A DNA stretch of 64,000 nucleotides from an uncultured Alphaproteobacteria bacterium (GTDB lineage Bacteria > Pseudomonadota > Alphaproteobacteria > RF32 > CAG-239). A program made the position numbers and the translations under genes. Below the pieces are notes generated by a model that was given only the letters and a program-made list of their open reading frames with translations, was not told the origin of the DNA and ran no database searches. The stretch spans positions 5,826-69,825 of the forward strand of contig CALXPT010000006.1 in assembly GCA_944390355.1 (NCBI GenBank), in the 5' to 3' direction. Below, one piece after another: positions 46,902 to 47,096 of this stretch. Every line of letters begins with the position of its first letter. Position 1 is the first letter of the stretch.

Positions 46902-47096
46902 ATGAGCTGTAATAACCCGAAATGCAAAAACCCCGAATGCACCTGCGGCGAAAATTGCACTTGCAACGAAACCCATCAGTGCAACGAGAATTGTGAAAGC
47001 GGCAAAGAATGCACCTGCGGCAAAGAATGCACCTGCGGCAAAGAATGCCATTGCGAAGAAAATAACAAATGCCACAAAGATTGCAATTGCCGATAA
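46902..47096 (+). CDS. Metallothionein-like Cys-rich peptide (64 aa, 19 Cys)
   Basis: MSCNNPKCKNPECTCGENCTCNETHQCNENCESGKECTCGKECTCGKECHCEENNKCHKDCNCR. Strong RBS aaaggagaga (spacing 6). Flanked by a terminator hairpin. Confidence 0.6.
   Translation: MSCNNPKCKNPECTCGENCTCNETHQCNENCESGKECTCGKECTCGKECHCEENNKCHKDCNCR
47001..47054 (+). repeat. 18-bp tandem repeat x3 (ggcaaagaatgcacctgc) inside the metallothionein-like gene, encoding GKECTC x3
   Basis: Copies 1 and 2 are identical. Copy 3 matches at 16 of 18 positions. Confidence 0.85.

Follow-up and report, generated by a model that had tools for sequence, protein, structure and literature searches.

Introduction

The biological function of only two bacterial metallothioneins, SmtA and MymT, had been investigated according to a paper of 2020 (PMC7387436), and a review of 2025 names SmtA, PmtA and MymT only (PMC12193353). 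Among these, mymT encodes a Cu(I) metallothionein and is part of the regulon of RicR, a CsoR paralogue (PMC3944814, PMC7558416). Here, we describe a gene for a cysteine-rich, metallothionein-like protein of 64 residues that lies downstream of truA in a 64,000-nucleotide stretch (called the window for simplicity) of contig CALXPT010000006.1 from an uncultured gut alphaproteobacterium (assembly GCA_944390355.1). In most of its relatives the gene is followed by a gene for a CsoR-family repressor and preceded by predicted CsoR operators. We consider it likely, with a probability of about 0.72, that the gene encodes a cytosolic metallothionein of an undescribed family that was ancestrally wired into a CsoR operon, and that the window copy was relocated and is variable in repeat number.

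SmtA/BmtA and the window protein are both small bacterial Cys/His proteins presumed to sequester metal. However, the window protein lacks the aromatic and hydrophobic residues for a zinc-finger-like fold, and the regulator of its relatives is of the CsoR type and not of the SmtB/ArsR type; no adjacent ArsR/SmtB-type repressor recurs in the 26 genomic contexts compared, in which a CsoR-family gene is the sole recurrent neighbor. With the eukaryotic copper metallothioneins (fungal Cup1/Neurospora type) it shares strings of C-x-C and C-x-x-C and the absence of hydrophobic residues, and the Neurospora copper metallothionein is comparable in size to the ~25-residue, 7-Cys core of the window protein. 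Matches to the eukaryotic families are sub-threshold and compositional, however, and the CNNPKCKNP...HQC signature is foreign to them.

Like MymT, the window protein is small (~5-7 kDa), non-annotated, Cys-rich and cytosolic, and most relatives carry a TACCC-Nx-GGGTA palindrome upstream of the gene, which is cognate to CsoR-family Cu(I) repressors (PMC3944814); the top NCBIfam model of the partner regulator is RicR. The host is a gut alphaproteobacterium and not an actinobacterial pathogen, and the window copy itself lacks the palindrome. The regulator usually lies downstream of the metallothionein-like gene, with which it is predicted to be co-transcribed; this arrangement was not compared with the mycobacterial layout. 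No relationship to MymT in sequence emerged: none of the nine matches of an exhaustive phmmer search against 1.84 billion representative proteins looked mycobacterial, the MymT sequence itself not being aligned. Csp1 and Csp3 are Cys-lined cytosolic Cu(I) stores of bacteria (PMC7558416), as the window protein may be, but the Csp proteins are four-helix bundles of more than 100 residues, whereas the window protein has 64 residues, no helices in its structural model and no Pfam match. Finally, csoR-copZ-copA type operons are autoregulated and carry a type-2 CsoR box in their promoters (PMC3902906, PMC5057107), as is predicted for the arrangement of the relatives. Its cargo is the CopZ chaperone or CopA exporter and not a metallothionein-like protein, and no P-type ATPase gene was found within ~6 kb at any of our loci.

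Results

The cysteine-rich protein of the window

The gene and the parts of it that are discussed below are as follows.

46902..47096, + strand: coding sequence of the 64-aa Cys-rich metallothionein-like protein (ATG start; from the list of open reading frames (ORFs) and their translations)
46908..46982, + strand: conserved N-terminal core CNNPKCKNPECTCGENCTCNETHQC, residues 3-27, with 7 Cys and 1 His (from invariant columns in the family alignment)
47001..47054, + strand: three tandem 18-bp units encoding GKECTC, GKECTC and GKECHC, with one C-x-C pair each (from Tandem Repeats Finder and a listing of the units)

The product of the ORF (MSCNNPKCKNPECTCGENCTCNETHQCNENCESGKECTCGKECTCGKECHCEENNKCHKDCNCR, 64 residues) contains 17 Cys and 3 His, correcting the 19 Cys reported in a first-pass annotation of the sequence. 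Besides Met1 it is composed only of C, N, E, K, T, G, H, S, P, Q, D and R, i.e. it has neither aromatic nor aliphatic residues. Cys accounts for 26.6% of the protein, against 1.2% in the 42 other long ORFs of the window, and 15 of the 17 Cys codons are TGC (background use 52%). The Cys are spaced by 4,4,1,3,1,5,3,5,1,3,1,3,1,5,3,1 residues, which gives seven C-x-C pairs. The protein thus has the sequence features by which metallothioneins are operationally defined, namely a low mass with a Cys content of ~15-30%, Cys arranged as C-x-C, C-x-x-C and C-x3-C, and no aromatics or hydrophobic core (as judged from 26 family members and AlphaFold). The AlphaFold model of the single window sequence had a low mean predicted local distance difference test score of 54 and was devoid of helices and any other secondary-structure element, as would be expected if folding depended on bound metal. 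The sequence has neither a signal peptide nor a hydrophobic segment resembling a leader.

Searches of curated collections with the window protein returned no Pfam match at E <= 10 and nothing relevant in NCBIfam, and no solved structure in the PDB, that of SmtA included, was matched with either the single sequence or a family profile. When 18 aligned family members were scanned against Pfam, only metallothionein families were touched, all of them below threshold: PF02067 by six members (best E = 0.0086), PF05522 by three and PF00131 by one, the best E values per eukaryotic metallothionein model in the relatives being 0.0086, 0.045 and 1.7. The gathering threshold of these three models was reached by no member, and the window protein matched none of them. 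PF02069 (SmtA/BmtA) was matched by none of the 18 members, which agrees with the first-pass view that the protein is unlike SmtA/BmtA; its description as closer in flavor to eukaryotic-type or MymT-like Cys strings holds to the extent of these weak eukaryotic matches and of the regulatory logic of the relatives, which mirrors MymT/RicR (PMC3944814). Judged from its sequence, the window protein would qualify as a metallothionein, yet it sits in no curated family.

At least 22 metagenome contigs encode the identical 64-aa protein. The exact sequence is missing from a collection of 15 billion proteins, and an exact look-up of seven hypothetical alleles with 0-6 extra repeat units found none of them there. 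A word-indexed protein search with the 64-aa query gave no match, nor did a scan of a metagenome collection with an exact 36-nt DNA pattern, which did not reach the window species. No match to plasmids was obtained with tblastn, so that nothing points to carriage on a plasmid, and an Rfam scan of 46300-47600 for riboswitches and small RNAs was empty. An antisense 160-aa ORF (46641..47123) and a 52-aa ORF in the +2 frame were discarded as by-products of the Cys-codon periodicity.

A family conserved in gut Alphaproteobacteria

Relatives were collected by a scan with a back-translated pattern in one genome per species. This yielded 26 loci, 25 of which stem from metagenome-assembled genomes of uncultured gut Alphaproteobacteria or 'proteobacteria', with sources including human cohorts (Brazil, Hadza, Nepal), mouse, water deer and CAG:495. 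Each locus has an ORF of 43-61 aa, and a GGAG-type ribosome-binding site (RBS) precedes nearly all homologues. The core CNNPKCKNP[NDE]C[TQ]CG[DE][NH]CxC[DN]E[NT]HQC is common to all genome loci, and 19 alignment columns are invariant, among them 9 Cys, H25 and Q26. The C-terminal half varies in length, so that the total number of Cys ranges from 10 to 17 and is highest in the window protein and in locus L003. Mean Cys content is 25.9%, every protein has 3-6 His including the invariant H25, and not a single F, W, Y, L, I or V occurs in any of the 26 members.

Over the 28 core codons of the 26 sequences, the mean proportion of nonsynonymous differences (pN) was 0.072 and that of synonymous differences (pS) 0.91, i.e. 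synonymous sites are near saturation and pN/pS is 0.08. This low ratio shows that the family protein is under strong purifying selection, and the ORF at 46902-47096 is a real gene. A separate scan, this time of metagenome contigs, brought in another 43 loci, nearly all of them from human gut; the 41 loci that could be parsed encode 15 distinct proteins of the same design. Of the nine phmmer matches mentioned above, four are short family members and the rest are Cys-repeat proteins. The sequence family is previously undescribed and confined mainly to gut-associated uncultured Alphaproteobacteria.

A CsoR-type repressor gene and CsoR boxes in the relatives

Clustering of the neighboring genes within +/-6 kb of the 26 loci revealed a sole recurrent partner, a gene of ~95 aa that directly follows the metallothionein-like gene on the same strand. 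Found at 17 of 25 genome loci and at 35 of 41 metagenome loci, it is separated from that gene by 5-102 nt and encodes a CsoR/RcnR-family repressor (PF02583, E = 1e-24). The top NCBIfam model of the repressor is the copper sensor RicR; among solved structures, Geobacillus CsoR (4M1P, 7e-15) comes closest, followed by the nickel sensor InrS (5FMN, 5e-14). In every sequence readable by pattern, the partner has C-H-C at positions X-Y-Z, Tyr at A, Glu at B and Lys at C; 41 of 55 partner sequences gave the pattern H-C-H-C-(Y-E-K), and no other residues were seen in the rest where these were readable. The combination of C-H-C with Tyr at A, Glu at B and a non-acidic C accompanies Cu(I)-sensing CsoRs, whereas InrS has Pro at A and Glu at C (PMC4235346). 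By this rule, the relatives' partner, which has no counterpart in the window, carries a Cu(I)-CsoR signature.

In the csoR-linked loci, one or two copies of TACCC-N5-GGGTA are found upstream of the metallothionein-like gene. With at most one mismatch allowed, we counted 28 such boxes within 130 nt upstream at 18 of 25 genome loci, and four in the other ~433 kb; of the 41 metagenome loci, 35 have the palindrome as well. In 22 of 26 cases, a TTGAC -35 element is followed after 5 nt by the first box, which extends into the TATATT/TATAAT -10 element. The motif agrees with published CsoR boxes of Bradyrhizobium (TATACCCnnnnnGGGTATA; PMC5057107) and Streptomyces (ATATACCCCTNAGGGGTATAT, in which the TAC/GTA ends are essential; PMC3902906) and with the operator of the M. 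tuberculosis ricR promoter (TACCCCGCTGGGTA; PMC3944814). We therefore regard the boxes as predicted CsoR operators in the relatives. Fit to the operational definition and, in most relatives, a predicted common operon with a CsoR-type sensor behind CsoR boxes both speak for the metallothionein-like label that the gene had been given at first reading. Two further boxes were set aside: a one-mismatch box at window position 22780 lies inside a RodA/FtsW-like ORF and was taken as chance, and an exact box in L025, 298 nt past the gene start, lies in tRNA-like sequence, apparently in the variable arm (judged from ORF translations; no tRNA scan was run).

The window lineage has lost the box and the csoR neighbor

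In the window, in L001-L003 (84-87% identity of neighbor proteins) and in L010, the gene is found downstream of truA. The first-pass annotation had made conservation between truA and the DUF1566 gene a test of the gene; the truA side is kept in these four closest species, while the DUF1566/Lcl_C neighbor is variable and absent in L003 and L010. No csoR gene was found in the 64-kb window or in contigs of other strains, and the best match to a CsoR box within 130 nt upstream of the window gene has four mismatches; L001-L003 are box-less as well. L010 has no adjacent csoR and carries a perfect box, TACCCCGCAAGGGTA, in a TTGACA promoter. Specific to the window copy are thus the loss of CsoR box and csoR neighbor and a C-x-C repeat that is polymorphic in copy number (see below). 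Upstream of the window gene, two elements were read from the sequence.

46839..46867, + strand: promoter-like element CTTGAT-N17-CTAAAT, no CsoR box; position conserved in L001-L003
46889..46895, + strand: RBS AAAGGAG, 6 nt before the ATG

The second bears out the near-ideal RBS with a spacing of 6 that had been noted at first reading. The first was not called by a scan for E. coli-type promoters. The housekeeping promoter consensus of Alphaproteobacteria is CTTGAC-N17-CTATAT, which we take the element to fit, and a second strain haplotype has CTTGAC-N17-CTAAAT at the same position. No terminator lies between truA and the metallothionein-like gene. With a box-less promoter-like element of its own, a strong RBS and no csoR within 64 kb, the window copy probably does not depend on a local CsoR switch for its expression, which may be constitutive or due to read-through from truA.

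Among the strain loci L027-L054, the upstream region 46826-46901 occurs as two haplotypes of 76 nt and 78 nt, which differ in the -35 element (TTGATA versus TTGACA), the spacer and the 5' leader. As a separate observation, in L022 and L025 a tRNA-like sequence ~100 nt upstream directly precedes the gene (judged by eye, no tRNA scan). Since tRNA genes are typical points of integration and rearrangement, this would fit a gene that has moved several times.

An in-frame allelic series in the 18-bp repeat

The tandem repeat at 47001-47054 that had been noted at first reading is present as described: units 1 and 2 are perfect copies and the third, which encodes GKECHC, matches them at 15 of 18 bases. 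Tandem Repeats Finder reports a period of 18 bp with 2.8 copies and 100% identity at 46999-47048. The suggestion that copy number could vary between strains was followed up on contigs from the European Nucleotide Archive, which were fetched via the exact window truA or Gfo/Idh/MocA proteins and hence were not conditioned on metallothionein-like sequence. Every strain contig has the gene, and the following alleles were counted; the counts are not population estimates, since similar places were collapsed.

3-unit allele: 64 aa, 17 Cys; 10 distinct samples
2-unit allele: 58 aa, 15 Cys; 5 distinct samples (L036/L046, L041, L052, L053, L054)
1-unit allele: 52 aa, 13 Cys; 1 sample (L050)
Diverged 2-unit allele GKECTC-DKECHC: 58 aa, 15 Cys; 2 samples (L047, L049)

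Copy number thus does vary between strains. The 2- and 1-unit alleles correspond to the 3-unit coding sequence minus one or two 18-bp units and are otherwise identical to it, and all length variants are in frame. The 2-unit allele is tied to a private upstream single-nucleotide polymorphism in 5 of 5 samples, which argues against random collapse of the repeat during assembly. The 1-unit allele shares its upstream haplotype with many 3-unit alleles, implying independent events. The diverged 2-unit allele, which probably shows the state before the expansion, carries the window-type upstream haplotype, and this suggests recombination within the locus. Gene callers missed the 58- and 52-aa alleles on several contigs.

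A change of the same kind is seen in another species of the family, where an in-frame indel of 27 nt (KENEKDCGC) between KDCGC units distinguishes L070 from L073-L091 and gives alleles of 42 aa and 51 aa. Taken together with the alleles of the window species, gain and loss of units looks like a general mode of evolution of the C-terminal domain. L072 has a truncated allele of 48 aa.

Discussion

The observations can be combined into the following scheme. The metallothionein would be a small protein without a hydrophobic core that folds only around metal-thiolate clusters, of which one is probably formed by the invariant 7-Cys/1-His N-terminal core and a second probably by the variable C-terminal half. 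In the ancestral state its gene would have been the first and csoR the second cistron of a two-gene operon, transcribed from a TTGAC-N17-TATATT promoter with one or two boxes TA-TACCC-N5-GGGTA-TA located within the spacer, across the -10 element and immediately behind it. Apo-CsoR would occlude this promoter, and rising cytosolic Cu(I) would bind to the Cys-His-Cys site of CsoR and cause its release. From the released promoter both the sequestering protein and its own repressor would be made, and the metallothionein would sequester Cu(I), and possibly also Zn or Cd, in thiolate clusters. In the window lineage, the gene would have been relocated behind truA, where it has its own box-less promoter-like element, and its C-terminal domain would have been expanded recently by in-frame duplication of the 18-bp G-K-E-C-T-C unit. 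Replication slippage or unequal recombination would then account for the 1-, 2- and 3-unit alleles (13, 15 and 17 Cys) that occur side by side in the population.

Adding a further family, and one that has a clear regulatory partner, would broaden the picture of how bacteria buffer cytosolic copper, namely by sequestration and not by export alone. The setting is a poorly known, uncultured lineage of the human and animal gut, in which copper stress comes from the diet as well as from the host. The module of metallothionein gene, csoR and boxes represents a compact, testable copper-sensing cassette, and the natural series of one, two and three units provides a set of variants with which to ask how metal stoichiometry depends on the number of C-x-C units. 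The case also illustrates how very small genes of low complexity are missed: several alleles were skipped by gene callers and the window protein is missing from a large collection. A more far-reaching version of the scheme holds that bacterial metallothioneins have here a third family, unrelated in sequence to the others and specific to uncultured gut Alphaproteobacteria, that the gene escaped its ancestral CsoR switch in the window species, and that the 18-bp repeat is a hypermutable contingency locus by which co-circulating strains tune capacity by two Cys per step to the copper or zinc of the host gut. We regard this version as tentative and, on balance, doubtful.

Several points weigh against a CsoR-controlled copper metallothionein. 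The window and L001-L003 have neither a CsoR box nor an adjacent csoR, so the regulatory argument holds for the relatives and extends to the window gene by homology only. By E. coli standards, the window promoter has a weak -10 element, and the allele counts derive from assembled contigs and not from reads. As for the metal, the Cys/His pattern at W-X-Y-Z alone does not predict it (PMC4235346), the partners carry a conserved N-terminal His that aligns with His21 of InrS, InrS scores nearly as well as CsoR (5e-14 versus 7e-15), and a CsoR of Bradyrhizobium with the same box is responsive to Zn and Cd besides Cu (PMC5057107).

The last points would also suit a metallothionein for another metal, i.e. 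an SmtA-like buffer of Zn(II)/Cd(II) or a Ni/Co binder, with the neighboring CsoR-family protein sensing that metal. The 3-6 His per protein and the invariant H25 recall His-containing Zn metallothioneins, and in one strain of the window species a ZIP transporter gene lies two genes downstream. However, this ZIP neighbor is confined to a single strain arrangement, and neither an ArsR/SmtB nor a Zur gene recurs beside the gene in the 26 contexts. Moreover, the regulator has the Tyr-Glu-non-acidic combination at A, B and C that goes with Cu(I)-CsoRs and not with InrS (PMC4235346), and RicR leads its NCBIfam matches. We therefore consider a non-copper metal unlikely.

With an extreme Cys content the protein might alternatively be a buffer for thiols, redox changes or reactive sulfur, or a cysteine reservoir, rather than a metal store. 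Persulfide sensors such as CstR are members of the CsoR superfamily (PMC8643695), and a metallothionein of Pseudomonas was dispensable for metal resistance and aided stationary-phase survival (PMC7387436). Yet the partner regulator has retained the C-H-C His along with the second-shell Tyr and Glu seen in Cu(I) sensors, and the invariant C-x-C/His pattern of the protein is typical of metal-thiolate clusters. Persulfide sensors of the superfamily use a dithiol pair and are not known to carry the C-H-C His. We consider a role of this kind improbable.

Even slighter is the chance that the gene encodes the precursor of a ribosomally synthesized and post-translationally modified peptide or another secreted Cys-rich peptide (sactipeptide, ranthipeptide, lanthipeptide or knottin-like toxin), as its shortness, its richness in Cys and Thr and its hypervariable C-terminal half could suggest. 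Genes for radical-SAM enzymes, LanM/LanBC, proteases or ABC exporters do not recur near the gene in the 26 contexts (+/-6 kb), csoR being the sole conserved neighbor; there is no signal peptide or leader-like hydrophobic segment, and it is the N-terminus, Cys included, that is conserved, unlike a dispensable leader. A chance ORF or non-coding repeat, for which one could cite the short length, the 58- and 52-aa alleles skipped by callers and the absence of the exact sequence from the 15-billion-protein collection, is excluded by the selection statistics (pN/pS of 0.08 with saturated synonymous sites) and is also at odds with the conservation in 25 species and 41 metagenome loci, the strong RBS and the consistently in-frame length variants.

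Flanking features and related proteins

Downstream of the metallothionein-like gene lies a hairpin, which was found by fold energy.

47107..47131, no strand assigned: GC-rich hairpin with a 9-bp stem, AACGCCCCG / loop AAGAACA / CGGGGCGTT

Its folding energy is -20.2 kcal/mol on the + strand and -20.1 kcal/mol on the - strand (z = -3.9 and -4.7 versus shuffles), and it separates the convergent metallothionein-like and Lcl_C-like genes. The + strand has no U-tract, the tail is more U-rich on the - strand, and the hairpin was not called by a terminator scan. The hairpin of the first-pass annotation is therefore real, but it does not qualify as the gene's own terminator: given its location between convergent genes and the U-richer tail on the - strand, it is probably a weak terminator that is at best shared by the two. 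Just past the hairpin, in the convergent intergenic region, an 8-bp tandem repeat (AAGGGTTA x 2.1) is found at 47135-47151.

The convergent DUF1566/Lcl_C-like gene (47156-48655, - strand) encodes a Cys-rich protein of secreted type with a sub-threshold match to PF07603. Together with the following ORF of 193 aa (to ~49250) it forms a strain-variable island, inside which many metagenome contigs end. L003 lacks the Lcl_C-like gene and L010 lacks both it and the 193-aa ORF, and in strain L027 the Lcl_C-like gene is followed by ZIP transporter-pfkB-gatBAC genes. Elsewhere in the window (38910-42797, - strand), a gene for a TraG/VirD4-like coupling protein of type IV secretion systems (PF02534) adjoins that of a 453-aa pentapeptide-repeat protein, and both genes are kept in L001-L003 and L010.

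Cys modules resembling that of the family also occur in larger proteins. In a mouse-gut Eubacteriales metagenome-assembled genome (L026:1041-1769), a GrpE protein (PF01025, residues 104-239) has an N-terminal extension of ~100 aa with 27 Cys and 9 His, which is built of the same C-x-C-G-E-N-C-T-C-D-x-E-H-K-C module; this protein is a metallothionein-like domain fused to a chaperone co-factor. Two further proteins, P0004 (194 aa) and P0006 (174 aa), carry the same Cys module N-terminally, and P0004 also C-terminally, flanking a central domain without Pfam match. P0001 (645 aa), which is probably eukaryotic, has 11 tandem NPCGNPSCKCPTCECGTGCTCG modules (49% identical to the core of the window protein) followed by the start of a ThiF-family domain.

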